Below, in pieces: positions 1 to 45,060 of a stretch of 64,000 bases of DNA (positions are counted from its first letter, which is position 1; the number at the start of each line of letters is the position of its first letter). A program made the translations under genes and the position numbers. The notes beneath the pieces were generated by a model, which saw only the letters and a list, made by a program, of their open reading frames with translations, was not told where the DNA came from and searched no databases. Source of the DNA: Torpedo marmorata (taxonomy: Eukaryota); assembly GCA_977017645.1 (NCBI GenBank), contig OZ360236.1, positions 24,490,001 to 24,554,000 of the forward strand. Direction: 5' to 3'.

Positions 1-270
1 GTAGGCCATTTAGAACGGAGTTGAGGAAAAACTTTTTCACCCAGAGAGTTGTGGATCTGTGGAATGCTCTGCCTCAGAAGGCAGTGGAGGCCAATTCTCT
101 GGATGCTAACAAGAAAGAGTTAGATAGAGCTCTTAAATATAGCGGAGTCAATGGATATGGGGAGAAGGCAGGAATGGGGTACTGATAGTGGATGATCAGC
201 CATGATCACAGTGAATGGTGGTGCTGGCTCGAAGGGCTGAATGGCCTACTCCTGCACCTATTGTCTATTG
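1..270 (+). mobile_element. CR1-clade LINE 3' end (HER1-like), truncated by window start
   Basis: Typical CR1 ORF2 C-terminus (FRTELRKNFFTQRVVDLWNALPQKAVEA) followed by 3'UTR 'gaagggctgaatggcctactcctgcacctattgtctattg' tail. Confidence 0.85.
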
Positions 271-762
271 GTATCAGGCCCTCCCTTGCCTCCCAAAATT
301 GTCTTATCCTTTAGTTTTGGTGGCTGTGAAAGCTCATTGAAGGGTGCTTGTGGGCATTTCCTGCATTGTTCCTTATTTGCATTCTCTTTTTCAGTCAAGT
401 CAAACCAGAGTTGAGCAGGGGGTTTATTTTTAAACAAATACTAATACCTGACTGTCATAACATGCGTGAGACCTGCGATCTAATTGAAAAACAGAATCTG
501 ATTTATCCATATCAAACTTTAATTAACGTCTGGTTAAAGTAAGAGTAATTGGTTTAATGATTTACACAATACTTTCCTGCCTCTGGTTTCATGTCTGTTT
601 ACAGAATAACGGGATGAAACGACCCACTCAGTTGATTGCACAGCGTGGAGTGAATTTGGGAAATCTTAATTTGTTTTCTAATGGGTGATGACTCTCACAC
701 TTGGAAAGATTGCAGCATTACAAGCAATGGAAGAGAGAAACGAAACGCCAATCCTTTGTTTA

Positions 763-1249
763 GGGCGGCACGGTTGGCGTAGTGGTTAGCGCAACGACTT
801 TACAGCGTCAGCAATCGGGACCGGACAGGGGTTCGAGTCCCACGCTAAGGAGTTTGTACATTCTCCCCGTGTCTGCGTGGGTTTTCTCTGGGGGGCTCTG
901 GTTTCCTCCCACAGATCAAAAACATACTGGGGGTGTAGGTTAATGGGGTGTAAAGGAAAAGGTTCCATTATTGTCATGTAATACTACATTTAGAATGTAG
1001 CATACATAATTCTTTTATTTTTGTCTACCGTAAGGCAGAGGGTCGCTACTTTGTCCAGCGCCCCTCACAGAAACCTACAGAACCTGGTATTCCTCCAAGT
1101 CTCCCCTCCGAGTACTGACCAGTCCTGTGCCTGCTTAGCTTCCGAGATCAGACAATCCCAGTCGTATTCAGGCTATTGGTGCTGTTGGGTGGCACGGACT
1201 CGTGGGCCGAAATGGCCTGTTACCGTGCTGTATGTCTAAATTTAAAATT
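763..1249 (+). mobile_element. tRNA-derived V-SINE (HE1-like), interrupted by a 5S-derived SINE at ~952-1186
   Basis: tRNA-like head (ggcgtagtggttagc...ggttcgagtccc), V-domain 'gtgtctgcgtgggttttctc...ggtttcctcccac', tail 'ggcctgttaccgtgctgtatgtctaaattt'; many copies in the window. Confidence 0.85.
952..1186 (-). mobile_element. 5S rRNA-derived SINE (SINE3-like), copy 1
   Basis: 1071-1186 is the reverse complement of a diverged 5S rRNA (ctgatctcggaagctaagcagg...agtact..gagac..ggaataccagg) joined to a ~120-bp non-5S tail; near-identical copy at 58435-58683. Confidence 0.8.
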
Positions 1250-2453
1250 TACACCGACTATTGACAGAGAAGCAGTCAGCTTTCCTGAACCAGAGCTGGA
1301 ATTTCCTCCTTTAACTTTTATGTCAACTTCCACCATTTTTGACACTCCTTAAATCAGCCTCTTTCACCCGTCCTAATTTCCTGTTTTGACCCATCAACAT
1401 TCCTAACCCTCCCTTTTGGCTGGGTGTCAGTTTGTGTGCAAACTTCTCAAAGGACTTCGATGTCTTACTACTCTGAACACTTCATGTACATAGATTGTCG
1501 GAATGCAATTGTTGAGTGGGAAGAGGAAGAATATTTGTCTGTTCACAACTGCTGTGCCTGCCCTGAGAATGCTTGATGTAATCAAATGCAAAGAAACAGA
1601 TCCTCTGACACAACCATCTGATCAATAAGCTTTCTTCTTCACAAAGAGCACTTTAAGTACAGGACATCAGGGCTGTGTGGGGGAGGGGAGGAGGAGTGAC
1701 TTCATTTCCATTGAAACCTTGGATTTTTTTTGTTCTCTTTTATTGGTGAGTCTGTCCCAGAGTATAAACACTGCTTTTTCAACAGAGGAAGTACTGTCTT
1801 CAAACACCAATGCCTACCAAACACAGATGTGGTGTTAAGTTTCCCTCTAATTCCATCTCTGCCGAAATGAATATCTGCTAATTATGTTTTTTCTGGAGAT
1901 GAAAGTGAGGGGAACACCCTCCAAACTCTTGAAGATAATGTGTGAAAAAATTCATCTTTCAAATAGCAGTCTGTTTGATGGCTAAATTTCAAAGGTGTAT
2001 GACTATTCATTATGGTACACTTTATTTCTAAAGTAGTTAAGATTGCGATGGACAATTAAAGTTTCTTTAGCCTTTCCTTTTGATTTGGTGCATTTAAATC
2101 TAAGTGTGCTGCCCTTGCTCGATGTGTAGACATGGATGGATAAATAACTGAGAAAATGCCTAGGGCAGGATGTTGCAAGGAAGTTTTTTTTTCTTGCCGA
2201 GTTTCATCAAAGAGGTGATTTGTTTTGGCTGGATTTTCCCTTCTGATTGGCAGCCAAGGCAAGCCATCAGATTTGTCCAGTTAACAAAAAAAACCCCACT
2301 AAATTTGCTTTTACATTTCAGTTTGGATTCCAAGAGTTGATTTCCATTGCTTCTGCTGTTAAATCAATTTTTTGGTTGTCCTACAGCCTTGGGGACCCTG
2401 CTTCGACCCGAGTCTGCTGTGGAAAACAGGTTCAGCAGCAAGTACTGGAAAAT

Positions 2454-2656
2454 AAGAAGTAAAACACGAAAGTCTGCAGTCACCGTGGTTGAAGTAAAAA
2501 CACAATGCTGGAGAAACTCAGCAGGTAAAACAGTGTACTTTATATAGCAAGGATACCTTGAAGGGCTCAAGCCCGAAACATTGGTTATGTATCTTTATCT
2601 TTGCTATATAAAGTACACTGTTTGACCAGCTGAGTTTCTCCAGCATTGTGTTTTTA
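2454..2656. mobile_element. Fold-back non-autonomous Penelope-end element
   Basis: Inverted arms match the 3' terminus of the PLE at 18086; 15-bp TSD CAAGTACTGGAAAAT at 2439-2453 and 2657-2671. Confidence 0.85.
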
Positions 2657-3948
2657 CAAGTACTGGAAAATGATCCTTAGAAACTAAATGAAAGAAACAA
2701 CATCAACAGATCCCAAGAAGTCAATATTTCCCTCCCCACCCCCCCCCCCCCTTTCCAGTCGCGTGTGTGTATTATTTGCTATAGTGTAAAAAAAAATTCA
2801 TGGCTTCCAAGTTTCAAATGTAATTTCTTCTAACATCTACAATGTGCTTCTGTTGGATTTTAAACATTAAATGCTCAGACTTACAGCAGTCATAGCAATG
2901 GAATTGTACATTACTAAATTGTGAAAGACTGCTGAATATTCAAGCAAAATCTTTTCAAAAGATTAGTGACACTGGTCACTTTGGGGGGGGGGGGAAATAG
3001 AGCAGAAGGAAGGATTCCTTTTAGTAAATTATTTTGAAACTGCAAATTGCGTGAGGCCATGTCCTTGAACTATGTGACCACAAGTCTGTAGTTCTGAGCT
3101 CTGGGTTGCTTGCATATTTAGACCCCAGTCTTTTAGTCAGTTGTGACTCATCTTTCCTTCTCTAATTGTGCCAGAGATTTCTTGCATCTGCCTACCCCAG
3201 TCATTGCCACCCTCCCCCCACGACTGAGTACGCTTTGTGTAACACATTAAGTTGCTCAGTCCGCATTTTAAGGGCCATAATGGCAATTCCTTCAGCACTG
3301 GTTTCAAGTTACACAACCTGATCAGTGTGTAGCATGCACCCTTGTAATCACGTGGTCTGGGAGAGGCAAACTGCTTTCACATCGCTGCCTGTTTACAAGG
3401 GCTTTGTCTAGGTTACAGCAAGCAGAAGGATTCGGGCAGGAAAGATTTGGGTTTTCCCAGATCAAAATTTAAGGTAAAGTTTCAAAGAAAAAAAAATTTT
3501 AAATATCTGCATCCTTAAACCTTACAACTCCATTGTGAATGGAGATTTCTAATCTCAGTAATCCTACGTAAAACATGCTGACACGGAGTTGTTCTGATCA
3601 GCTCCATCAGCAAATAAAGCTGTGACAACTAATAAGGAGTGCTGCACTAGCCATAGTGAACCGGCAGAGAATACAAATCAGAAGGGCAAGGGAGGATACA
3701 GGGAATCCGATTTATAAAGCGTACAAGGGGACAAAATGGACAGCAGATGCTGGAATCTGGAACAAAAAAAAAACTGCTGGAAGAACTCGGCGGATCCGGC
3801 AACAACTGTCGAAGGAAAAAGGCTGGTCAACGTTTCAGCTCGAGATCCTGTATTGGGATGAAAAAACTGCACTTCCTTGAAGGGCTAGTGTCAGTTTGAA
3901 CTTGAATACAGCAGATCTATGCACAGCAAGCAATTAGAAACTCAATGG

Positions 3949-4706
3949 AGTAAAACACGAAAGTCTGCAGACACCGTGATTGAAGTACAATGCTGGAGAA
4001 ACTCAGTAGGTCAGACAGTGTACTTTTTATAGCAAAGATAAAGATACATAACCATCGTTTCAGGCTTTCAAGGTATGAAGAAAATGTAGGCAGGCGCCTG
4101 AACACTTTCAATACGTACACAGTGTGTCTGAATCATTAAAATTTTAAATTTAGACATACAGCACAGTAACAGGCCCTTTTGGCCCACATGTCCGTGCCGC
4201 CCAATTTACACCAACTAACCTACAACCCCCAGTACGTTTCAAACGGTGGGAGGAACCCGGAGCTCCTGGGGAAAACCCACGCAGACAGGGGGAGAACATA
4301 CAAACTCCTTACAGGCAGCGCGGGATTCGAACCCAAGTCCCGATCGCTGGCGCTGTAACGGTGTTGCGCTAACCGCTACGCCAACCGTGCCACCTCATTA
4401 AGGCACCAGTGGATTTTTTTTTCATTTGTATATACTGGATCTTTACTACTGAGCTCAGAAATTGTAACTTTATATTGTGGTTCTGTTAGAGGAAAATTGT
4501 AAGATTAAATTTACAACTTTAAATTACTGCTTAGATTATGATATAGCAATGTGACATTAGCTCTGAGATATTCATTTGTAACTTGAATAGAGCAGGTGGG
4601 CACCTGCCTACATTTTGTCCATACCTTGCTGAAGGGCTCAAGCCCGAAACGTTGGTTATGTATCTCTTTCTTTGACCTGCGGAGTTTCTCCAACATTGTG
4701 TTTTTG
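3949..4706. mobile_element. Fold-back Penelope-end element carrying a copy of the TGIF 3'UTR and a nested V-SINE
   Basis: Left arm ~3949-4103 and right arm ~4598-4706 are inverted PLE termini; 12-bp TSD GAAACTCAATGG at 3937-3948 and 4707-4718; interior matches 6310-6538. Confidence 0.85.
4140..4394 (-). mobile_element. V-SINE (HE1-like), full length
   Basis: Reverse complement of the 763 family; 7-bp TSD TCATTAA at 4133-4139 and 4395-4401. Confidence 0.9.
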
Positions 4707-4929
4707 GAAACTCAATGGGTTGGTTAGTCTTCTGTCGTTAAACCAAAAAGCTGCAAAGCAGTAAGTGAAGCTTTTGAATCGGAAACACTGGGGCAGAAAA
4801 GTGTATGTTTCTGACTGTTCAGAGGATATCTTTGTGAAAAGAAATCCTGAGCATTGTACAAACTTGCATTGTGCTGGTAGATTCTGTGATTGAGGATTAT
4901 CTGACATTTCCAAATGACAAAGTTGCAGG

Positions 4930-5065
4930 AGACACACAAGAGACTGCAGATGCTGGAATCTTGAGCAAAATAAAAGCAATCTGCTTGGAGGAACTCTTGA
5001 TGAAGTGTTCAGACCTGAAACATTAACATTCTTTTTCTCCCACTGTTCTTCCAGCAGATTTCTTT
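4930..5065. mobile_element. Older Penelope-end-derived short element
   Basis: 'ctgcagatgctggaatc...ttgatgaagtgttcagacctgaaacatt...ttccagcagatt'; same architecture as the younger copies but diverged. Confidence 0.55.
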
Positions 5066-5177
5066 TTGGTAACATTGAAGTTTTGCATTGTATTTTTTTT
5101 TTTTTTATTTTTTTTTAAAGTCACACAGCAATAAACTTAGTGCACTGATTAACTCTGTCTTTGCTTTCAAACACAAG

Positions 5178-5705
5178 GTTTCCAACTGGTTCATCAACGC
5201 AAGGAGGAGACTTTTGCCCGATATGCTGCTGAAAGATGGCAAAGACCCCCATCAGTTCACAATTTCTCGGAAGAGCAAGTCCTCTGAACTGACGTCGTCA
5301 CGAAGAGCAGGTGGACCAAACCTACTGGAGAATTCTGGTGCAGCCACCAGCTCCACTCTCTTACCTGCTGCATCTGTTAGGCCTTCTGTCATTTGTCACG
5401 CAACAACCTCGATGGTTAAGGACATGCCTTTACTCTTCTGCCCAGACTCTGGAAACAACAGTAAGAAAACCTCAAAACTAACCGACCAAAAGTTAGTTCA
5501 ACCTCTGTTCAACACTGATAACCCCACCGCCTTGGTGATGTGCACAGGTTCAACAAGTCCTAACAATGGACTGTTCAACACACCTCCACCCACTCCACCA
5601 GAGCTCCACCAGGACTTCAGTGGGTTTCAGTTGCTGGTGGATGTTGCACTGCAGCAAGCTGCTGAACTGGAATCTCAGAAACAGAATATCAAGGTGTCAT
5701 CTTAA
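5178..5705 (+). CDS. TGIF2: TGIF-family TALE homeobox protein, last coding exon (helix 3 plus C-terminal corepressor region)
   Basis: AG acceptor at 5176-5177; [31 protein letters not shown] and [35 protein letters not shown] are TGIF hallmarks; TAA at 5703-5705. The TGIF2 label rests on linkage to DLGAP4; several residues look TGIF1-like. Confidence 0.8.
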
Positions 5706-7290
5706 ACACATAGGCAGAGAACATTGGTGAATGGGAGTAGAAATGTAGATATCGGAGAAATCTTGTCAGTTGGTTCTAGTCTGTGGATGGGCATTGATGT
5801 GTTGCTTAATAGTTGTAAAATCCATTTTGGACAAATAACTATTAGAATGCATTTCTCTGATTGGAGATCTTAAAATCTGCCCAATTGAATTAAATTTCTC
5901 ATGGGTGAACGGTTGATTGTAGACCCCCGGAATTGAAGGGTTGCAATAATTATTTCCTTAGTATTCTCAGAGCCTCCTTTGTAGCTTTGCACTCTGCAGC
6001 CTGTAGATTCTGGGATTTCAACATAGTAAGCATTATTAGTATTCTGTATTTTTGACTGCAGATATAAACGAGCTGTAGTTGTGCTTCAAGGAACAGCAGT
6101 TTACCCGAATCTTAGATGTTTCATGTTGATTGACCAGTGTGGTCACTGTTCAGGTTTTAAGATTTGGGATAAAGGCTTTTTTTCCCCCTCGGAACACAGC
6201 AGTCGTTAATGCAGATGTAGTGAGAATAGAACAAAAGGGGCAGCACTGAGCTGACCCATTGTTATGTGGATCGCAAGGACTGGAAATTCTTTGGCACGTA
6301 ATTAAATCCTCAATTCGTGCACAATGTGTCGGAATCATTAAGACACCAGTAGAATATTTTTTCATTTGTATATAATGGATCTTTACTACTGAGCTCAGAA
6401 ATTGTAACTTTAAATTGTGGTTCTGTTAGAGGAAAATTGTAAGATTAAAATTACAACTTCCTTTAAATTACTGCTTAGATGATGATATAGCAATGTGACA
6501 TTAGCTCTGAGATATTCATTTGTAACTTTTGAATACAGAACTGTTAAGGTAAACATTTGTTTGTTAGTTCTTTGTGAATGTAGTTATCTTTTGATTTTTT
6601 TTAATGTAGTACATTGTTAAAGGTGATGTGAGACTTTTTATAACAATAGTCCAAAAATCATCTACATGGTAATCTGGGATTCAAATAAATTAATTTTTCA
6701 GATTCTAAAATGTCACACACCATAGTTACAAAATAAATTGTATTGTGAGAAAGTCTTATATATATAAAAAAAAATAGTGATTTTAATATCCAAGTCACTC
6801 AAACTATGACCCTTACAGACCAAAATACTACAAGTCTCCAGTGTGTGGCAGTGGTTCATAATAAATTTGGAATTGTTTTACAAACAAACTGCATGGAAAA
6901 GCCTTTTGCCGGCAGACCATTTACTTTTGATGTGGGAACTGCAAATATTTGCTTCATACACCAGTCCTCTACTGTAAATTGTATACAGGCCTAAACTGTA
7001 TAACTGTGGTTTTACAAAGTAGCTTTACATAAATGCTATTTGTGTCAGAAACTTTGAAAATTTTTGTTCAGTGTTAATGCAAAAAACGAGGCTTTGCAGA
7101 TCATGTAGATAAGGTGAGATAATGCAAATGTGCCTTATGATGGTGGTGTGTTTTTGTTATTTGAAGGGACCACCCAACTTGTCTAGTCTTCACTTTCAAT
7201 CTGTGCAATATTTAAAGGAGTTCTTTCACTCCATTCTTTGTCTTACAGGAACATTGATCACATCTGTGAATTTTTTTTAAATACCACTCT

Positions 7291-7296
7291 AATAAA
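7291..7296 (+). promoter_or_regulatory. Candidate TGIF polyadenylation signal AATAAA
   Basis: Ends a repeat-free AU-rich ~1.6-kb stretch after the stop codon and is followed by GT/T-rich sequence; alternative AATAAA near 6685 and 6732. Confidence 0.5.
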
Positions 7297-8312
7297 GATT
7301 TGACATTTGACCATTGCGTTTTGTAATCATTGGTGACAAAATTCATATTTTAACATGCTCTGTAATTTCTTGAACTATGAACACCGATTATGATATGCAG
7401 AATTCGAGCTGCTGCCACCAGACCTGTTTAGTGAATGGGTGGCACTTCATACCAATTAAAAAAAAAACAAGTGAGGTGTCACTTTAATGCTTCTTCTTCC
7501 CCACCGATCACCAAACACACTTTCCAAATTTATGCTCGAAGCAACATGATCAGAATGACCCATTTTTGAATGGGTTCTTCTTGGCAATTAGCTTCAGTGA
7601 GTCAGAAGACTAGATCTCGAGGTCACAGCCTACCTTTTCAGCTACACCCATTGAGAACGGACAATACCAGTAATGGCAACAGTATAAAAGCAGTAATATT
7701 TCCCAAATCTACAGCAACCACCAGTTTAAAAAGTGAAAAATGTTTTTCTTGTATACATGTTGTGCAGTGAGGGTAAATTTGAGGTTTTTTTTTCTTATTG
7801 CACTGGTTACTTACAGATTCAGTACCACATGATAGCTGCCCAGCCTTTCCACTTCATAGAAATCCATCAGAGGACTCAAACGTCCACAAAATAACAATGG
7901 AAAATTCATTCCTGCTATTGTGAACTGAAATTTTACAGAAGACATGATTTCAGAAAATCCATTTTACTCACACTTTTAAAACATTAAAACAAATCTTTGA
8001 GGACGCTGGTCAAAAGGCAGCGGGTTAACAGAGCAGATAATTATTGGGCTCAATTCTTTTGGAAACATTCCACGATAGGGGAATACTTAAATAATTTATC
8101 ACCAATATTTAACTAGAGTACTGCAGAATTTAAGATGGCGACAAATTTTTCTTGCTTATTTTGTGCCTACGTTAGCAACTTGCTCAAATAAGATGTGACA
8201 ATTATAACAAAGCTCTGTTCTTGTTAACTTGACACTTTGCAGCACTGAGTAGAAAAATAAAACACTCCAGAGATTTCAATTTTTAAAACCAAAAATTGAA
8301 ACAATGAAGTAT

Positions 8313-8820
8313 CACATTTGGAGCACTGTGTACAGTTTTGGGTGCCTTATTTGAGAAAAGGCATTGGGGAGGGTTCAGAGAGGATTTACTAGAATGATAC
8401 CAGGAATGAAAGGGTTAGCATATGAGGAACGATTGTCAGTTCTTGGACTGTACTCGTTGGAGTACAGAAGGATGAGGGGGAACCTCAGAGGCATTTCTAA
8501 TGTTGAAAGGCCTGGACAGAGTTGATGTGACAAGGATGTTTCTCATGGTAGGGGATTCTAGGACAAAAGGGCGTCAATTTAAAACATGCAGAAAAATTTA
8601 TTTTGTCAGAGGGTCGTGAATCTGGAACTTTGCCACGGGTGGCTGTGGAAGCGAGGTCGTTGGGTGTATTTACAGCAGAGATTGACAGGTATTTGATTAA
8701 TCAGGGCATCAAGGGTTACGGGGAGAAAGCCGGGGAGTGGGAGGATGGATCAGCTCGTGATTAGAATGGCGCGGCAGACTTGGGCCAATTGGCCTACTTC
8801 TGCTCCTATATCTTGTGATT
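8313..8820 (+). mobile_element. CR1 LINE 3' fragment
   Basis: Degenerate HLEHCVQFW..VQRGFTRMIPGMKGLAYEERL motif and CR1 3' tail 'ggcctacttctgctcctata'. Confidence 0.8.
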
Positions 8821-10265
8821 CTGGTGTTTTTGGAGTCCTATTAAGCCATAAATAAAAAAAATTATTTCAAAGGAATGATCCAGTGGTTAGTGACAGGGAA
8901 GGAGGCAACAAAAGTGAACCCAAGACTTGTAAACCACAAGCGTTTCACATTTCAGTCTTTTGCACATCAGGCTTTTATTATAATGTGATTATAGAAGTGT
9001 TTTATCATAATCTTTCTCTCCTCCTCCCACCATTCCAGCAGCTGAAATATGATTATCTGGATTCCTGGTGCAGCTGTCACTTAGCTAATGCGTACACTTG
9101 ATGGAGCAAGAGACAGTGTGTCGGTAGGCTCAGGCTAATCTAGGAGTGATGTAATAGCAGCGGCTAGCATTTAAATCATAGGGCAGATGTTTATATTTTT
9201 AATCCTATTGCAGGAAGTAATGACTGAGGCAACAAATTGCTTTAGAGTTTCAAAATGAGGCCAAGCTGAAGAAAAGATTCCCGAACCTGTCGTTAAGCCT
9301 GCCTCTGTTGAACCTGATGAAAGAGGTGATTTCATGACAGTTTTATAGACTGATGAATAAAGAACAGGTACAAGACCTGAATCACCCAGGGTCTTTTGAT
9401 CAACAAACATTACTGGCGAATTTAGAAATGAGACACTACATCATATTCAGGAAGTGTAGCAATTTTCAATCGGACTTTTCCAGCAGTTGAATCCAAGGAC
9501 AAGTCCTTCAGTGATGTTGCAAAACTCTTCCCCTCATATGAATTTAATGCATGTGATTCCTTGTCTGCTAATTTACTTTCTCCCTGCCAACATTCCTTTG
9601 TCAAAGTAGCTCTCATCGAGCTGGTTTTCAGGCAAGGCCATCTGATTTTTCAGCCGACCCTTCCAAAATGCAAATCAAACCATGAAAGGGCAATTATTCA
9701 AATCACTCAGGCTATTACCACACTCGGTGGAAGCACATGTTGAGAAATTGCAAGCTTATTTCCCATATCATTCCATTTAAGGAAAGTTCCCACATCATTC
9801 CATTCATTATTTCAAGGAATGTCATGTTTAGGGAAATGAGTTTTATATAACATCTTGAGTATTGTCCCAAAGCACGTCATGGCTAACGGAATGGCATCAG
9901 AAGTTTTGGCAATGTTAGAAACAATGTGCACACAGTAAGCTCCCAGGTACAATAATGTGACAATACCAACTAATATGTTTTGAATGAAATTGGTTGTTGA
10001 CCAGGACTTCAAGAGTAAATTCATCGGATTGTTCAAAAAAGTACCATATGATCCTTTACATCTGCCTTGGAGAGCAGATGGTACTATGGTTTGACACGTT
10101 CATTGATGTACCACTCCTGTGGTAATGTAGTTGAGCTTTAAGTTCAGAGCCATGGAATATTTCCTATTGATGTTGTGCAACCTGCTGAGTTTCTCCAGCA
10201 CTTTTGTGTATTGCACGACAGAAATTCTTTTGTCTTGGTGTGCTATTCTGTATGCTGGGTAAAAT

Positions 10266-10370
10266 GTGCCGGTTTCCTCCCACCCTTCAAAACGTATTGG
10301 GGTTGTAGCGCAATTGGGCGGCGTGGGCCGGAAGGGCCTGTTACCGTGCTGTATGTCTAAATTTTTTTTA
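10266..10370 (+). mobile_element. V-SINE 3' half
   Basis: 'ccggtttcctcccacccttcaaaacg...ggcctgttaccgtgctgtatgtctaaa'. Confidence 0.75.
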
Positions 10371-11357
10371 AATGAAATTAACTCATGGATCTGCTCTTTT
10401 GTGTCAAGCATCATTATTTTTAACATGACCCACAGCCAAAACACCTCAACTGTCACCAGCACCGAAACAGGCTCTTCAACCAAACTCGTCCAAGCCAACC
10501 AAGTTGCCTACCTGAACTAGACCCATTTGCCTGCGTGTTAAAGTGGACCTTAGGTGTTCCAAAGCAAACACGAATACAGCTGCAGAAACAAACTTTTCAT
10601 CACTTTGCAAAGCGTAAAAACTCTGTCACAGCAAGAGACATAGCCACGAGCTGCTAGCTTACTACAAAGGAGACTAGCCTCGTGGCTTACAAAAACTTAA
10701 GTTATAGTTTCTTATCTCTAGTTTTTGGAACATTCGAATGGGCTGCTCCATACAAGTACCCATTCCTTAAAATTCTCTTGGGATTTGTCAATTAGTCTCA
10801 CACCACTGAACCAAATAAGGAGCTTCTTATCAGCTCCCAAGCTGATAACAGAGAAAAGAATGCAGCCTAAAATGCAACCCATCCCCTTTTCCCTTCCAGT
10901 CACCATTTTGAAACTTCCAGTTACCATTTTAAACTTGCATTTTATTTTATTCTAAAATCTACTTTCTCATGCGTGTGACTCTTTCCTATCCATGTAGCTG
11001 TCTAAATGTCTCTTAATCTTTCTAACTGTATCCTCCTCCACCACTCCCACTGGCACTTCATTCCAACTCAACTGTGTCCAGAACTTGAGTACTTTCATAT
11101 CGGAATCAAATCACTAATCAGCACATTTTTTAGCTGCAGCACCAAACCCATCTCCAGCATAAGCTTAATGACTGTTCATGATTTTAAAATTAGTATTTAA
11201 TGTTGTTTCAATTATGGAATCACAGAATGGTGCCGCACAGAAGGAACACTGATCCCAACATGCTCATGACGGTTCTTTGTCACAAATCTTCACCCTTCTG
11301 CATACCTTTGGCATAATCCTTTCAAATATTTACCCAATTCCCTTTGGAAAATTCAAT

Positions 11358-11590
11358 TTAAATTCAATTTAAATTTAGACATACAGCACGGTAACAGGCC
11401 CTTCTGGCCCGTGACACCCAAATACCCGAATTGACCAACAACCTCCATTCGTTTTGAAGGGTGGGAGGAAACCGGAGCCCCCAGAGGAAACACACGCAGA
11501 CACGGGGAGAACATACAAACTCCTTATAGACAGTGCCGGATTCGAACCCGGGTTGCTGGCGGTGTAATAGTGCTGTGATAACCGCTACAC
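11358..11590 (-). mobile_element. V-SINE (HE1-like)
   Basis: 'aaatttagacatacagcacggtaacaggcc...ggattcgaacccggg'. Confidence 0.85.
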
Positions 11591-12523
11591 TTCTCGAGAC
11601 TGCTTCCATCACTTTTTTAGGTGGTGCCTTCCCAATATCAAAAATACACTATGCAAAAAAAAAAGCATCTTCATCTGGTTGCTGAAAAGGTTTGCCCTGA
11701 TTTATTCTATCAAAAGCCTTCATGGTTTTGAATACTTTTCTTAAATCTCCACTTGATCTTCTCTCCTCCACTGCTGAAACCCTGCTTCAGGATTGACCTG
11801 CCGAGTTCCTCCAGCAGTTTATTTTTTTGCCCTTGATTCCAGTATCTGCAGTTATTTGTGTCTCCAACAACTATGGCATTTCCAATTACAACTATGAGTC
11901 ATTCCTGGCATCATCTTAGTAACTCTGCTCCCAAACCAAGACCTCGACAAAACTGAACGCAAAACTTCAGCTGAACTTTATGAATTTTTCAGGGTTGATC
12001 AATAACTTTATTTTTATAATTGTCTGTTAACAAAGCAAACAAACAGTAGGCTTTTCTCCTCTCTGCCCATCTTCCAATAAAAGCCTTCTCAACTTTTCTT
12101 GCTTCCTGCAAAGGTTTGTTTACAAACATTCTAATATCTCTCTGCAGTGCAGAAAAGAAGTGCCTGAGAAACGCAGCAGGTCATGCAACTTCCATCGGAA
12201 GTAAAAGGCAGTCGACGCTTTGAGCCTGAACCCTTTGTCAGGATTTACCTCCCAGATCTCTCTGTTCTTGCACCTACTTCTAAATTGCACGGTTGGTTTA
12301 TTGTTACCGCTCTTCATTGTTACTACCAAAATGCAACCGTTCACAATTCTCTGCTATGCACTTTGCAGCTCAGTCTTTTCTCCTTCCAAACTCAAATTCA
12401 CCTTCCGACTTGCAATTTCTCAAGCTGGCATCCTCAAGGTGTTGCATCAACACACCATGGGAACTACTGATCAAATTCTCTCTTTTTAATCGGAATCTCA
12501 ACATTTTCTCTTTATCTGACTCC

Positions 12524-12783
12524 TCCACCATCAGACTCCTCAACAACAAACTCAAGCAGAAACTCATTTAAGGATTCTTACTTTGCATATTATTTATTAC
12601 TGAATATTTTTTCTGCATTTCTTTCTTTGTTTACATTTCTCTCTTTTGTATATGTACCTTTTTCTTGAGTACAGTTTGCACTACCAACAAGTAAAAATTC
12701 TGCCTGGCCCACAGTAAAAAGAATCTCAGGGCCGTATGTGATGCCATGTGTGTACTCTGACAATAAATCTGAACTTTGAACTC
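12524..12783 (+). mobile_element. Rex-Babar LINE 3' fragment
   Basis: Matches the 3' end of the element at 29057-30241 (ctccaccatcagactcctcaacaacaaactc...gacaataaatctga). Confidence 0.8.
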
Positions 12784-15223
12784 TCTCTCTATTTGAATTA
12801 ACAACATTCTTGTAAAGTCAATCTCTGCTCATGAACCATTTTGTGACCAGCCCTTTTTGAATTCTTACACAACAGGATTTTTCTTTTACAACTTTGATTC
12901 CAAAAACAGCAGGCTGAATACAAAACTGCACTTGCATGGCCTCAGCAAAATACTTCAACCACAACCTTTGATGAGCATCATACCAACCATCTGCATTTTT
13001 GCTAATTAGTACTAAATAAGGAGAGTTTATTCACCTATGCCAAGCAGAACCTGTGCTGATATTATCGAACAACGTATCTTCATGAAAGCTGGTAGAAACA
13101 GAAGCACAATCCTCACCAATTTATTTGGATTTGAACCCAAGCCAGTGGATGAAATCAATTTGTCTCTAGGAGAAATGTATTGCCAATTTTTACCTCTTTG
13201 ATGTAAGCTGCATCCTGTTTGTATGATTCATTGCACATGCACAATAATGAATGAAAGAGCCTGCTGGTACATACCAACATGTGCAGTTACTGCAAATGGC
13301 ATCTCTCCTACAAAAGTAGCTTGATACTGTGATAACTGCACAAGTAATCAAGAAGAAGCAGCAGGCATTTCACTTTTGTTTTCCATTCAATTCCAACCTC
13401 TCCATCTTTTGCCTTTTCTACTTTTCAACAATTTCCAGCCTTACTTTCACATTCCAACATGGCATCTTTTTTTTCTCTTTCTCTTCTGGCAGTTTCAGAA
13501 TTGATGTGCCTTCACCTCTTGGCACATCCCTGGATATTTTTTTGGTTTGTTAGTCACTGGTCAACATCACTGGCCATTCAATCTCTCCAAGTTTCCACAC
13601 TTTCACAGCACTCTGTTCTCCTCCCACATCCTCTCTCCACTGCATTTACCTTTTTAAAATCAGTGACTAGTCTGGCGACAAAATTTAGATCCCAATGCTT
13701 TGTTGAGAAATTAAGTACAGTTAATTAATTAAATCTGAAATAAGAAGTGTAAAGCGGTAAGAATTATTGTAAAAATCCATCTTGTGTACTTAAGGACTCA
13801 AAAATTTCATCCAGCCAGTGTAAGACTTTATACAATAGCAGGTCATGAACACTTAATTACCCTTTGGATTGGCTTAGCTGGTTATTTGAATGAATCCTCT
13901 GGAAAAGATTATGAATAAAACTGAATGGACAATTCATCCAGTATTAACAAGACTGACACATCCAGGCCAATTCTTATTTCAAAATACTGGATACTTGCTC
14001 CATCCCACAAATTAATTAATAAACACATGATCCTATATATCACTCTGCACAATATCTGTATCAATCCAGACGACAATATGGTTCAATATATTATGGAAGA
14101 ACCTGCCAGGAGCAGCACCAAGTATGAAGTGCCAAACCGGTGAAGATAGAACATCAATGTAATCCTGTGGTAAATAGGTAATTACCAAAATAGCACAAAC
14201 AGAATTAAGCAAACCAATAAGCAAAAGATCAAGTTAAAACTGTGAAATCTATGCTAATCTTTAAATGATCACAGATAACTAGCCAATCATGGAAGAGATT
14301 CTCAGAATCTCCATGAATACAAAGACAAGGTTGATGCATTTATTACAGTGGCAAGTGGATGACAATCTCAGCCTCTTCCTGAGGTAAACAAGAAGTCTAC
14401 AGATAGTGGGGAAGGCATCACTGGTAGTGTTCAGTCAATTCAAATCACTACATGATACCAAGGGACTGCTGAGTGTAATGTATACAGCAGTTGCAATGAG
14501 CCTCAGTATCCCGTCATTATAGTATTGATGACTTTGTACTCCACCATTTCCTGCCCAGGCCAACTGCAAACTGGCATTCATCATCAATAATGGGGAAAAA
14601 TTCCAGGTATGCCCATTGTTAACTAAGATGAATCCAATCTAGCCAATAACCAGTTCATTAGCCTGCTCTGATCACCAGTAAAGAGGTCTTCTCAACACTA
14701 TCAAGTGCCAATTATTCATCAATTAATAGCCAGTCAGCTCCACACCTCCTCACAGCCTTGCCGCAAACTGACAAAAGAGTTGAATACCAAAGGGGAGGCA
14801 AGAATGGCTGCCATTAATATCAAGGGTCACCGAGGAGTCTCGGTGAACATAGTGTAATTTATCCGGAGCTTGCTGAGAGTGGCCTTACAACCCCCTTGCT
14901 ACTGAGATACAGGAAACTTTAGATCTTACCTGAGACAGTCCACTGATATGAAGTTTCAAAAAGGCAAGTTCACATCTAAAATGGGAAGGACTCACACAAA
15001 CAATGAGCCTTGTTAGATACAGGACAATCGCATTGGCCGACAAGAATAAGCTCCACCCATAAAGCAGCTGAAAAACATCATTCACATCTGACTGCACTGC
15101 ATCACAAAGTTTGACTATTTCTTTCAACTACTTTGAATTTTACAAGTATTGAAATTCAAATTAGAGATTAAGCAAATTAAAAGACTCAAGGAAACATTAA
15201 AAGCAAACTATTTTTAAATGCAA

Positions 15224-15431
15224 GATTAAAACACGAAAGTCTTCAGACACCGTGATTGAAGTAAAAACACAATGCTGGAGAAACTCAACAGGTCAACAGT
15301 GTACTTTATATAGCAAAGATAAAGATAATGAGGCTCATACCTTGACGAAGGGCTCAAGCCCGAAACATTGGTTATGTATCTTTGCTATATATACTGTTTG
15401 ACCTGCTGAGTTTCTCCAGCATTGTGTTTTT
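15224..15431. mobile_element. Fold-back Penelope-end element
   Basis: Inverted arms as at 2454; approximate TSD TATTTTTAAATGCAA / TATTTTTTAATGCAA; hammerhead-like motif 'ccttgacgaagggctcaagcccgaaacatt'. Confidence 0.8.
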
Positions 15432-15744
15432 TATTTTTTAATGCAACCTACTTTATTCCCAATACTCCCCTCCCCATTTACTATCCATTACATTCATGGG
15501 CTGAAGATCCTGCTCTAGGTCCAATTTATCCAAGTTCTGTGGTATCATGGTACAAGTGGTGGCACAGTTTTCACAGCAGAGCCACTGTTTCACACTGCCA
15601 AAGGCCTGGGTTCAGTCCTGACTCTGGGTGCAGTCTGTGCAGAGTTAGCAAGCCCTCCCTGTGTCTGCAGAGGTTTCCCATGGGTGCCTCTGTTTCCTCC
15701 CATATCCCAAAGAGGTGCAGGTTGGTAGCCACGGTGTATAGGTG

Positions 15745-15925
15745 TATTGCTTTTGTTTGGATGCCTGCCGGCATTTTCTCATACTTTGATGAAGGGCTCA
15801 AGTCCGAAACATTGGTTATGTATTTCTACCTTTGCTTCATAAGGGACACTGTTTAACCTGCTGAGCTTCTCCAGCATTTGTGTTTTTACTTCAACCACGG
15901 TGTCTACAGATTTTCATGATTTACA
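15745..15925 (+). mobile_element. 5'-truncated Penelope-like 3' terminus inserted into an older V-SINE (~15555-16045)
   Basis: Reverse complement of 18090-18270; flanked by the direct repeat GTGTATAGGTG. Confidence 0.8.
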
Positions 15926-16130
15926 GTGTATAGGTGAGTGGGGGAATATGAGGGGAAATGATGAGAAAATCAGGATTCATGAGGGATGTGCAAATGGATG
16001 GCCAATGGTTGGCATGGGCTGAAGGGCCTGTTTCTGTGCTGCATCTTGATGACGCTGAGTGCTGGTAAATGCAAGAACTTCACACTCTACTCTTTGAACC
16101 TGTTGAATTGGACTCTGAATGTATTACACT

Positions 16131-16501
16131 AGGCCCTTTCACACCGCCGAGTACATGTGGGTTAACCGGGCAATTTACCCAGTAACTTACCCAGTAATCG
16201 TGCGGTGTGAAACGTCCCAAATAGGCAGGGCAGGTCAAATTCAACCGTGCTCGGAGACATGGGGGGGGGGGTACTCTTGGTGCCCGGCCGAGTTAACCCG
16301 CCAATTGCCTTCTGGCGGTGTGAAAGGACAAAAGTCTTACCAGGTAAGATTAGTGGAGGCGGGACCCCCCTTAAAATGCCAGGTTGCCGATTTACCAGGT
16401 AAGTAAGGCTGCAGTGTGAAAGGCCCCGGAGGTGCCGCCTTCCCGGGAACTTTACCCGGTTCCTAGGAGGGTTGGCAGGAATCGGCGGTGTGAAAGGGCC
16501 T
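16131..16501. mobile_element. MITE with terminal inverted repeats (probably PIF/Harbinger-type)
   Basis: TIR AGGCCCTTTCACACCGCCGA / TCGGCGGTGTGAAAGGGCCT; flanked by ACT...ACT (or TA if the TIR is 1 bp shorter); internal repeats of GTGTGAAA and TTACC. Confidence 0.75.
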
Positions 16502-16769
16502 ACTGATTCAAGATTCCTTTACTGTCATGTAATAGTACAGAACATGTAATATTACACAAAATTGCCTTCTGTCTGCAGTAAGGCAGGCAAAGAGTCACCA
16601 ATAGTGTTGCCTGGCGCTCCTTACAGTAAGAAAAAAAGAGAAGCAAATGAAAGCCCCACATGTAAACACAAACAATTCCATGCAAAAATGATGATGTTTC
16701 GGTAAAATTCAGGCCCAATAGAATTTAGGGAAAATCCTACATAGGCTGGATTATACCTAGCTCCAACGA

Positions 16770-17600
16770 TGATGACTATAGTTGTGGTGGCTAATCGTTC
16801 TGGGCCCTGTGCAGGAGTTCCATGCTCAACCATCTGCAGCAAAGGGCTGCAGTGGAGATATTAACTCATGATTATGTGTAGTTCCATTCATAAGTTTCTC
16901 ACATCATAAAGCAGCATGTGGCAAAATGTTGACACCATTCAGATTTGAGGTGATGGGCGGCAGGTATATTTGGAAGTAGGAGGTACTCACCATTTGCAAC
17001 AAAATAGAATCTAATTACTTTTTTTTGACATTCAATATTATCATCATCATATACTCCACCAAAATATGTAGGGCCTGGGTGGTCACTATTTTCCAGTATT
17101 TTTTAACTGGACCAGCTATCATAACTATTGTTACACAAGAGCACGTGTCAAGTGACCCACCTCCCAGGTTTTTTCTTATTGTTTACGTTGGCAGTGTGAT
17201 GGAATATGCCCTGTTCACCAGAATAACCACAGCTCCAACAACGCTCAGGAAAACGCAACACTATCCCAGAAAAGCAGCCCATTAATGTTATTTCCATCCA
17301 CATTAAGCATCAACTTCCTCTGCACAGATGCACTATACTATGTACGTACCATTTACTAGATGCACTGTATTAAATCTCCAAGGTCTCTTGAACTGACCCT
17401 CGAAAGCTACAACCCCTATCGCTGACGATGGAGGTACTCCTTCACATTACACATAATCTTATCGTGGAAAAATATCACCATTTCTTCATTTCCCTGGGCC
17501 AACACCCTATGAATAGGAACAGCAAGGAATCCCTTCACTTCAAAGAGTGCAGAGATTCAAGTTGACCTTCTCAAGAACAGCAAGAGGTGCACTATAAATA
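16770..17600 (+). mobile_element. Highly degenerate LINE (CR1/L2-group) remnant
   Basis: Decayed RT C-terminal motifs (gtgtgatggaatatgccctg..acagctccaacaac.ctcagg); related fragments at ~14600-14850 and ~57060-57430. Confidence 0.45.
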
Positions 17601-18085
17601 TTGGCATATTTATATATGCACAACTCATGAATGAAAAAGCAGCATCATTGCCAACAATCTGCAATTTATCCAGCCCTGATAAATTACAGAAAATGTGACG
17701 TTATGGTTTGTACTCCACTGTATATCAAAGCTCAAGGACTCAAACTAGTTGTTTTAAAATGTCATAGATGAAAGGGTGCTTCTCTCATAAAAAAATAGTA
17801 CAGTTAATTGTACATTAATACTCTACCCAGATCATTACTTCAAAAGACCAGTTCGCTTCCAAGGGACAAAACTACTTGTTCATTTTTTCGGATCTGCAAG
17901 GGAATGGCAGTGCCATCAATTATTACCCATCCTTAATTGCCTTTGAGAAGGTGGGAGTAAGCTACCTTGAATTGCAGCAACCCTTCTTCTGTCAGTGCTC
18001 CCATCATGCTGTTGGGAAGGAGTTCCAGTATTTGGTGATGGACTGGTGATACATTTCCAAATAAGAGAGTATGTTGTGAATGTAA

Positions 18086-19584
18086 GAAAAAAGTAAAACA
18101 CGTAAATCTGTAGACACCGTGGTTGAAGTAAAAAACACAAATGCTGGAGAAACTCAGCAGGTCAAACAGTGTCTTTTATGTAGCAAAGGTAGAAATACAT
18201 AACCGACGTTTCGGGCTTGAGCCCTTCATCAAAGTATGAGAAAATGCCGGCAGGCGTCCGAACAAAAGAGTGGGGGGGGGGTGAAGGGGGGTGGCAAAGG
18301 CAGGAGATGATAGGTGGAGAAAGGAGGGAGGGGACAGCAGCAAAGAGGGGGAAAAGGGATGGCTGGGTGGGTGGAAAAAAAACAGGAAGGACAAGTGAGG
18401 GGGGAGGGGAAGGAAAAGGCAAGCAGGTTTAGTGGAAAGCAGAAAAGTCAATGTTAATGCCATCTGGCTGGAGAGTGCCCAGACAGAAAATGAGATGTTG
18501 TTCCTCCAATTTGCAGGTAGTCTGGGTGGGATAGTACGTAAGGCCATGGACAGACATGTGAGTTTGGGAGTGTGACCCGGAATTGAAATGGCTGGCTACT
18601 GGGAGGTCGCTGTTGTTGCGGACAGAGAGGAGGTGCTCAGCAAAGCGATCTCCCAATCTACGACCGGTCTCTCCGATGTAGAGAAAGCCACAAAGGGAGC
18701 ACCGGATGCAGTAAATAAGTTCTCTGGATGTACAAGTGAAGTGTAGTTTCACTTGAAAGGCCTGTTTGGGGCCCCGGACTGTGGTGAGGGGGGAGGTGTG
18801 GGTGCAGGTGTTGCACCTCCTGCGGGCACAGGGGAAGGTGCCAGGGGTGCGATGGGTGGGGAGGGATGAGTGCACGAGGGAATCGCGGAGGGAGCGGTCC
18901 CTGCGGAAGGCCGAGAGGGGAGGAGAAGGAAAAATGTGTCTGGTGGTGGGATCCTGTAGTAAGTGCCGGAAATTCCGGCGGATGTGTTGGATGCGGAGGC
19001 TGGTGGGGTGGTAGGTGAGGATGAGGGGGATTCTATGTTTGTTGCATCTGGGAGCAGAGGGGGCCAGGGCAGATGAGCGGGAAATGGAGGAAATGCGGGT
19101 GAGGGCTGAGTTGATGGTGGTGGAGGGGAAGCCATGCTTGTGGAAGAAGGCAGACATTTCAGAAGATCTGGACTGGAAGACCTCATCTTGGGAACAGATG
19201 CAGCAAATACGGAGAAATTGAGAGAAGGAAATAGAATCCTTGAAGGGGACAGGGTGTGAGCAAGTGTAGTCCAGATAGTTGTGGGAGTTGGAGGGTTTGT
19301 AGTAAATGTCGGTGGAAAGCTTGTCTCCTGAGATGGAGACAGAGAGATCCAGGAAAGGGAGAGTGTTATCGGAGATGGACCAGGTGAGTTTGAGATCGTG
19401 ATGGAAGTTGGATGCGAAGTGGATGAAGTTGACAAGCTCATCGCGGGTGCATGAGGCAGCCCTGATGTAGCCGTTGATATAATGGAGGAAGAGATGAGGG
19501 GTCTTGCCTGTGTAGGCTTGCAGCATGGATTGCTCCACAAAGCCCACAAACAGGCAGGCGTAGCTGGGACCCATGCGGGTACCC
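18086..19584 (-). mobile_element. Penelope-like retroelement (PLE), 5'-truncated; RT C-terminal half plus GIY-YIG endonuclease
   Basis: ORF 18429-19586: MGTRMGPSYACLF, LPFLDL, IYCIRC..C..LYIGETGRRLGDRFAEH..VASHF; 15-bp TSD ATGTTGTGAATGTAA at 18071-18085 and 19585-19599; inserted in an older LINE remnant. Confidence 0.92.
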
Positions 19585-20789
19585 ATGTTGTGAATGTAAC
19601 CAGTTGGTAAATAATTTTCATGTTATCTTTTGTCATTGCCCTACTTGGTGGTAGTGGTGTCTGGTATGATAGGTGCTGTCTGAGTAGTGAATTTTGTTTA
19701 GGGTGCCAATAAAGTAGGTTGCTTTGTCCCTGTCGAAAACAATGATTGTGTAGAAATGCTCTTTTTGGATGCCAGTAGCAGGAAAATACTTTCAGCACAT
19801 TACACTTGTTCCCTGAGATGATTACAGTATTTTGTCATTTCTCAAAATCTCAGCATACTTAAATCACAATCTAAACTCCATTTTGGGATTGAAAAAGTGT
19901 TTATTAAAAGAAAACTAACTTACTGCTTAAGGTGACAATTGTTACTTTAACAATTTCTGGACCACAATTGCAAAAAAAAACATCTTTAGAACTAAAAAAA
20001 AAACTAACATTAAAAAAAAATTGTAAAATGCTCTAAACACTCAGCGGGTCTGGCAGCATCTTTGGAAAGAGAAACGGAGTTAACGTTTCAGGGAAACCCT
20101 TCATCAAACTTGCCTGACTTGCTGAACGTTTCCAGCATTTTCTGTTTGCATTTCAACTTTTAGGAAATATGCCACCGTTTTGTGAACAAAAAATGTGCAG
20201 GTCCACTCAAGATTTCACAAATGAAAGTAAATAAAAATGTTGCTCCTCTGCAATCATTTCAATTACATTTTACATTTCGCCTGAAAAAATATTTGTCATA
20301 TTACTACTCAACCTGCAGTCTGAAGCCGTTTATTTATTTGGATGCTGGTACCATCGTCAGCAGTTGCAGCAGGTCCGATTCACACGGACACCACGCACAG
20401 ACGTGAAACTGGTAACTCAGCCAGAGTCGGTACAGGGTACAAAGTAGGTTGTCACGGAGGGAAGATACGAGGTGCAACGTTCTCTGATTTTTTTTAAATT
20501 AAAGGTTTGCGATTTTTTATTTGTAATTTCAAAATCTAAGATCAATGCAATATTTGATGTACCTTGGAATTGCTTTGTATACACTCAAGCGAATATAGAG
20601 GTCAATTTACCATACAAGATTACAAATGTAAAATAAAAGTAGCAGTGCTCACACACCAAATTCTGCAAGTCAGAAAATTATACTATGTTTGGGAATGGAC
20701 ATGGTAGGACAACACGATACCCACATTCCCAAATGGAAATGCCTGCAGTTAAACAATGTGCTGGGGTAACTCATCAAGTGGAAGAAAAA

Positions 20790-44259: not shown

Positions 44260-44404
44260 AGGTATGCGCCGCTTATCGTCCGTTCGGGCAACGTCCAACC
44301 GCATATACGTCCGAGGTCCCATAATTATTCAGTTACGCGAGCAAGTCCGCAGCAATTTAGAAAAAGCGATTGCTAGCTATAGGAAATTGTATACTGTATA
44401 CCCA

Positions 44405-45060
44405 AACTGATCCGACTGCCCCGCTCTCTCCCCACAACCCTGTATCAGTCCCAACTAATCCCACTGCCCCGCACTCTCCCCACAGCCCCGTGTCGGTCCC
44501 CACACTGATCCCACTGCCCTGCTCTCTGCCCACAGCCCCGTGACGGTCCCCACACTGATCCCACTGCCCTGCTCTCTCCCCACAGCCCCGTGTAGGTCCC
44601 CACACTGATCCCACTGCCCCGCTCTCTCCCCACAGCCTCATGTCGGTCCCCACATTGATCCCACTGCCCCGCTCTCTCCCCACAGCCTCATGTCGGTCCC
44701 CACATTGATCCCACTGCCCCGCTCTCTCCCCACAGCCCCGTGTCGGTCCCCACACTGATCCCACTGCCCCGCTCTCTCCCCACAGCCTCATGTCGGTCCC
44801 CACATTGATCCCACTGCCCCGCTCTCTCCCCACAGCCCCGTGTCGGTCCCCACACTGATCCCACTGCCCCGCTCTCTCCCCACAGCCCCGTGTCGGTCCC
44901 CACACTGATCCCACTGCCCAGCTCTCTGCCCACAGCCCCGTGTCGGTCCCCACACTGATCCCACTGCCCCGCTCTCTCCCCACAGCCCCGTGTCGGTCCC
45001 CACACTGATCCCACTGCCCCGCTCTCTCCCCACAGCCCCGTGTCGGTCCCCACACTGATC
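44405..45060. repeat. 50-bp minisatellite, ~13 copies
   Basis: Unit ccactgccccgctctctccccacagccccgtgtcggtccccacactgatc repeats at exact 50-bp spacing from 44461 to 45060, with one degenerate unit before it. Confidence 0.95.

Follow-up and report, generated by a model that had tools for sequence, protein, structure and literature searches.

Pack-MULE-type elements are DNA transposons that move as a unit, each with a host fragment lying between terminal inverted repeats within a TSD, and 3' transduction is a related behaviour of L1. Closer to the present locus is Adineta vaga, in which pLTRs frame a host gene and other sequences within TSDs, the allelic site is empty, and template jumps have been proposed (Arkhipova et al., 2013; PMC3846280). 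The same report mentions non-coding DNA lodged between solo pLTRs in "a few other cases", as well as an inverted pLTR with the tail on one copy only. In Penelope-like elements (PLEs) the tail is often present at just one end, and inverted insertions with a 30-40-bp tail are found (Craig et al., 2021; PMC8557442). Biochemically, two RT start sites bound this tail, and both cut strands are extended in vitro (Frangieh et al., 2024; PMC11167929).

Here we describe an old PLE fold-back insertion, unit A, with a copy of the neighbouring, likely 3'UTR of a TGIF-family gene at its centre, together with a sister unit, B, in the same intron. Like the Adineta vaga cases, they consist of host DNA framed by pLTRs in one TSD, with an empty site in the case of unit B (organism F, one contig). 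The main cargo in Adineta vaga, however, is a whole intron-bearing gene between direct pLTRs which has moved elsewhere (PMC3846280), whereas here a short local piece lies between inverted arms, the source and its copies are in one gene, and the captured junction has been used twice. With canonical endonuclease-bearing PLEs the units share the inverted 5'-truncated copy, the tail at one end, the two RT start sites, and the cutting and extension of both strands; no host spacers or local re-copying are described in the excerpts of PMC8557442 and PMC11167929, and the tail polarity (27 of 27 units) is counted here. L1 twin priming and template switching are alike in that both target ends are primed, inverted segments arise, and jumps onto the 3'UTR of host mRNAs occur (PMC11702581), but the enzyme is of a different class, and poly(A) and non-overlapping inverted parts are seen there, while here both arms copy the same pLTR without poly(A). 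As in Pack-MULEs, a host fragment lies between inverted repeats inside a TSD, but these repeats arise as a side effect of reverse transcription, and the unit is not dispersed. The name "Pack-PLE", given to unit A in the initial annotation, says too much: the unit never spread as a family, and exists as two copies in one intron with different right junctions. The same annotation knew of no such capture in vertebrate PLEs. This holds insofar as no report of vertebrate PLE host capture or local re-copying was found in a literature search of incomplete coverage, but the novelty is put too high, as host capture between PLE repeats within a TSD is already known from Adineta vaga (PMC3846280). The present analysis contributes a junction used in two insertions, a strict rule of tail polarity and another local copy.

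The parent family

The parent family is an endonuclease-bearing Penelope-like element, with an RT, a C-terminal GIY-YIG endonuclease and inverted copies. Both domain matches fall below the curated Pfam cut-offs: RVT_1 reaches E 1.2e-4 in the copy at 53748-55600 of the window (the whole 64,000-nucleotide stretch analysed), and PF01541 reaches E 5e-4 over residues 290-358 of window 18432-19586, minus strand. An inverted truncated copy, a tail at one end and a TSD are found in 27/27 units. In the translation, a Cys cluster precedes the GIY-YIG domain; a Cys-rich stretch between RT and endonuclease is a trait of the Neptune clade. Minimal hammerheads have been described in fish PLEs (PMC4209133), and 47 intact minimal cores are present in the surveyed 1.314 Mb when counted with an ad hoc pattern; the Rfam search gave no hammerhead hit. 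The 5'-truncated copies with RT and GIY-YIG remnants lie at 18092-19587 (15-bp TSD) and at 53748-55600.

The host gene and unit A

The homeobox exon upstream, whose best structural matches are TGIF1 (E 7e-16), is joined to the last coding exon through a 21,344-bp GT-AG intron. The host gene can be assigned to the TGIF family, a call that rests on this upstream exon; the last exon alone yields no domain in the Pfam search. Unit A lies in the same 21.3-kb intron, about 460 bp upstream of the last-exon splice acceptor, and its features are collected in Table 1. Since it is located between the stop codon and the first AATAAA (6684), the source segment is likely 3'UTR. An ATTAAA at 6301 was considered as the reason why the copy ends at 6310, and found no support.

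Table 1. Coordinates of unit A, its source and the adjoining exon, numbered from the first letter of the window.
Feature	Position	Strand	Remarks
Unit A TSD, left copy (12 bp)	3937..3948	+	GAAACTCAATGG; exact match to 4707-4718
Unit A left arm	3949..4104	-	PLE 3' end with ~35-bp tail; antisense to host gene
Arm-to-UTR junction (left), unit A	4091..4115	+	Base-exact identity with sister unit B
Captured host segment, part 1	4108..4139	+	Corresponds to 6310-6341
Later tRNA-headed SINE	4140-4394	-	7-bp TSD at 4133-4139/4395-4401; segment holding the SINE has 121 matches in 1.31 Mb
Captured host segment, part 2	4402..4592	+	Corresponds to 6342-6538; old 4-bp and 2-bp deletions
Right junction filler	4593..4606	+	Short palindrome repeating left-arm end (4086-4100); precedes right-arm start
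Unit A right arm	4599..4705	+	PLE 3' end without tail; sense to host gene
Unit A TSD, right copy	4707..4718	+	Exact match to 3937-3948
Last coding exon, TGIF-family gene	5178..5706	+	AG acceptor; stop 5704-5706
Source segment, likely 3'UTR	6310..6548	+	A copies 6310-6538; B copies at least 6310-6548

The initial annotation had read this structure as a PLE fold-back with a same-strand copy of 6310-6538 between its arms, enclosed in a 12-bp outer TSD and later interrupted by a SINE, and each of these points is confirmed. In BLAST, 4395-4592 matches 6335-6538 with 92.6% identity over 204 bp (E 3e-82), and 4108-4139 matches 6310-6341 with 87.5% over 32 bp; the spacer is 7-9% diverged from its source. 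The TSD is exact, and its score was equalled by none of 300 random arm pairings. The SINE has its own TSD and a T-loop match, and is a putative V-SINE. V-SINEs combine a tRNA-derived head with a conserved V domain. Both arms have decayed, the left by 6-bp and 11-bp deletions and the right by one of 21 bp. The right-junction filler is better preserved in organisms C and D, and the relatives' alignments have loose ends at 6528. A degenerate inner repeat of about 15 bp stands on both sides of the spacer, which is also compatible with a later filling of the hairpin tip or with host repair after insertion.

A sister unit shares one junction

When the source is used as a genome query, three matches are obtained (3/3 candidates scored): the source itself, unit A and unit B. 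The spacer is thus not a dispersed repeat, as the initial annotation required of its reading. Unit B is a second fold-back (L002 1357-1907; G000:C49:24474221-24474771) situated 15.6 kb upstream of the window, in the same intron as A; its distance to A is 19 kb and that to the source 22 kb. It has no SINE, its own TSD of about 16 bp is decayed, and its spacer extends to at least 6548, so that the spacer of A (6310-6538) is nested wholly within it. The tail polarity is opposite, with the tail of B on the right arm and that of A on the left.

At the left junction, A and B are identical in the last arm base, the short T filler and the first UTR base. The 25-nt pattern covering this junction has two matches in 6.2 Gb, and the control none. 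At the right, the junctions differ, and the flanks of the two units are unrelated. Among 12 short empty fold-backs of the surveyed region, none shares its centre junction with another copy. The shared left junction implies that one unit re-copied the other, or that both go back to a lost master, rather than each having captured the UTR directly. The capture very probably had a single origin. Consequently, the earlier view that capture and insertion were one event stands in part: the TSD makes the two arms one insertion, but the junction shared with the sister unit means that one of the units was re-copied.

Substitutions add a constraint on timing. Over 213 ungapped spacer columns compared with the UTR, unit A has nine differences of its own and unit B 14, and the two have three in common. 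Two of the shared states are present in the UTRs of organisms C, D and F, and the remaining one, close to the end of a contig, only in that of F; the UTR therefore changed later, and no shared derived substitution remains. The shared variants were thus rejected as proof of common descent, being ancestral UTR states. The four arms have no private variant in common beyond one CpG site, so arm variants were uninformative as an indicator of the direction of copying. On these comparisons, the two copies would have separated right after the capture, with no shared derived change left. Hammerhead cores are broken in 4/4 arms and the spacers drift; both copies look dead and are probably functionless.

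Presence in relatives

Contigs of organisms B, C, D and F were aligned to the source and to the unit B locus. The right junction of unit A and its 4-bp deletion are present in organisms B, C and D (3/4), F being represented by UTR contigs only; as the initial annotation had assumed, the unit is not an assembly artefact. The flank-to-arm join of unit B is present in organisms B and C, with almost no cover in organism D; the remainder of its spacer does not appear in the contigs of B or C, nor its right junction in those of any relative. In organism F, the site reads TSD and then right flank, which is an empty site (one contig). Neither arms nor spacer are present at this outgroup site, so that for the sister unit there is no sign of a UTR copy predating the arms, in agreement with the original reading. 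Unit A was present before the split from organism C. Capture and re-copying would have been close in time, before the split from C, with B arising after the split from F.

Compared with the focal UTR, the unit A copies of C and D show 7 and 13 letter differences in about 150, and the UTR contigs of C and D show no substitution at 6332-6547 among the alignments listed. Within C, D and the focal genome, and for these listed alignments, the copies drift while the source is conserved. The captured part of the UTR at 6332-6547 is unusually conserved among the three, and is possibly a regulatory element.

Fold-backs around the locus

The survey covered 1.314 Mb (G000:C49:23840001-25154000), or 0.02% of the genome. 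It gave 200 arm hits and 89 candidate inverted pairs, 27 of them with a TSD score of at least 9, a value reached by 1/300 random pairings; one of the 27 is uncertain, as its left arm has two possible partners. Unique host sequence is carried by two of these fold-backs, A and B. Counted by origin, capture amounts to one event among 27 fold-backs in the surveyed 0.02% of the genome. Where other fold-backs have a non-PLE interior, it consists of elements nested there later, of low-copy repeats, or of PLE body that the small reference library lacks. A candidate spacer of 296 bp at -152417 was discarded: its left arm has its own TSD, hence it is no fold-back. When low-copy local duplications next to PLE arms were searched for, the LTR pair of a nested element was the sole result besides A and B.

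In each of the 27 TSD-flanked fold-backs, one arm is tailed and the other lacks the tail (p 7e-9 vs 50%), while 82/146 of the other arms of the survey are tailed. This one-tail rule matches the two RT start sites and the extension of both strands in vitro (PMC11167929). A fold-back would thus be the normal two-ended product. Either arm can be the longer one, and this speaks against a model in which the first cDNA simply snaps back and is copied. In a weak test of whether partner arms come from the same template, the partner ranked first in 8/22 units, only three of them without ties, and 5/27 units were too short. Private variants are shared by both arms of single fold-backs at L024 (window-scale -96887 to -96126), L008 (-13489 to -13187) and 567874-568132; these reflect one template read twice or a later hairpin conversion. 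By eye and without a count, tail-less arms often begin in microhomology with the end of the TSD.

A younger local copy

A younger insertion, L132:1328-1600 (window-scale 92227-92499), has its own 15-bp TSD and is made of an 11-nt tail-less stub and a 232-bp copy whose source is a fold-back at a distance of 56 kb (L133:1354-1585). The copied part comprises the right arm of the source from the hairpin centre onwards, its TSD and about 75 bp of flank, and it is identical to the source at 228/232 positions without gaps. The direction from L133 to L132 is clear, since the source retains both TSD copies. The arm-flank junction of L133 has 10 genome matches, the flank being a repeat, and this is why the scan for low-copy duplications overlooked the insertion. 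Of eight other loci with this junction, four were inspected and all four need gaps in the flank. A read-through RNA, bound at its pLTR, would be a simpler source of the copy than DNA invasion, because the copied part has no homologous arm ahead of it. L131 and L133-L136 show several PLE insertions into a common repeat, each at one and the same base, possibly a preferred target site.

How the units may have arisen

The reading that we favour, if by a modest degree, is a PLE-driven capture at integration followed by local re-copying within the same intron. The PLE protein would cut both strands, and cDNA would be primed from both target ends, at the start of the tail and at an inner T-tract. One growing end would quit the PLE RNA and copy about 230 nt of nearby TGIF sequence, either nascent RNA or DNA; this end would then rejoin the other by microhomology, the spacer being whatever was picked up before joining. 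No intron falls within the captured piece, which also lacks poly(A), and because both target ends are primed, its orientation is compatible with an mRNA as well as a DNA template. Soon afterwards, a new local integration would be templated by the first unit. That A came first and B was copied from it is our tentative choice, held with slightly less than even confidence, as the source is only 1.7 kb from A, the tails are swapped, and an RNA route is available. B would owe its swapped arms to transcription of A in the antisense direction and to the reading of that RNA from both start sites. The additional nucleotides of B (about 10) could come from a switch to the then-identical real UTR or from later trimming of A, which has five other small deletions besides.

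Taken alone, the nesting of the A spacer within that of B favours the opposite order, which we hold to be unlikely on the whole. B would have captured the UTR first, and the left end of A would have paired with the homologous left arm of B and copied junction and spacer, either during the integration of A or when the host repaired a break at an empty A hairpin tip (one-sided gene conversion with end joining). Homology would then account for the preserved left junction, no lost sequence is needed, and the inner repeat flanks the A spacer as expected. But the primary capture would have reached 22 kb, leaving the proximity of A to the source to chance, no B-private variant occurs in A, and the younger local copy starts at the hairpin centre of its source instead of in a homologous arm.

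A lost master would dispense with copying between the two units. In this improbable scenario, the UTR formerly carried a truncated PLE end at 6310, antisense read-through templated both A and B (a 5' transduction), and the allele was then lost. The same left junction, the free right ends, the swapped tails and the star-like divergence would all follow, and neither right arm extends past the junction position. In organisms B, C, D and F as well as the focal genome, however, the UTR runs uninterrupted across 6310, and the loss of the master while A was fixed 1.7 kb away would take a rare recombination or a clean excision. Two independent template jumps to one UTR position, favoured by a hotspot, would fit the separate TSDs and right junctions and the lack of shared derived substitutions, but are very improbable given the same arm base, UTR base and short T filler in both units, and a junction without clear microhomology (letters 6308-6309 of organism F lie outside the comparison, and an ancestral T run is possible). 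Although inverted PLE structures trouble short-read assemblies (PMC8557442), an assembly artefact, a dispersed repeat or a plain segmental duplication is hardly credible with this divergence from the source, three copies only, unrelated A and B flanks, the right junction of A in three other organisms and the empty B site in F.

Under PLE-driven capture with local re-copying, the twin units suggest that PLEs can duplicate neighbouring host DNA. We further consider, with clear reservation, that the vertebrate PLE protein may act in cis, loading on nascent pLTR-containing transcripts, reading both start sites and integrating within tens of kilobases. If so, old insertions would be re-copied locally together with the host DNA that they hold or abut; A, B and the 56-kb insertion would then be relics of "capture and hop", a local route that copies conserved regulatory sequence into intronic hairpins. 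The twice-used junction, the tail polarity and the 56-kb copy make such cis action testable, and a marked template in two insertions, the one-tail rule and a directed local copy provide genomic predictions for the in vitro PLE system. Should local re-copying be widespread, PLE-rich genomes would contain many short local duplications of this origin.

Other elements in and around the window

The TGIF intron and its surroundings (L006-L008 and window 1-20000) are rich in PLE ends: a 50-kb stretch around the start of the window has 21 arm hits, against 1-9 per 25 kb in the rest of 514 kb. Two empty fold-backs with TSDs of 14-15 bp, at 2458-2657 and 15227-15436 of the window, belong to the same family. 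LTR-type elements are nested in PLE fold-backs at window-scale 553977-558487 and 656083-661295, and a DNA-transposon-like insert is found at 120606-121337. From -140318 to -125173 on the same scale, recent low-copy local duplications of 91-99% identity are clustered, with no tie to PLE arms. Finally, a tandem array with a 50-bp period occupies 44401-45060 of the window.
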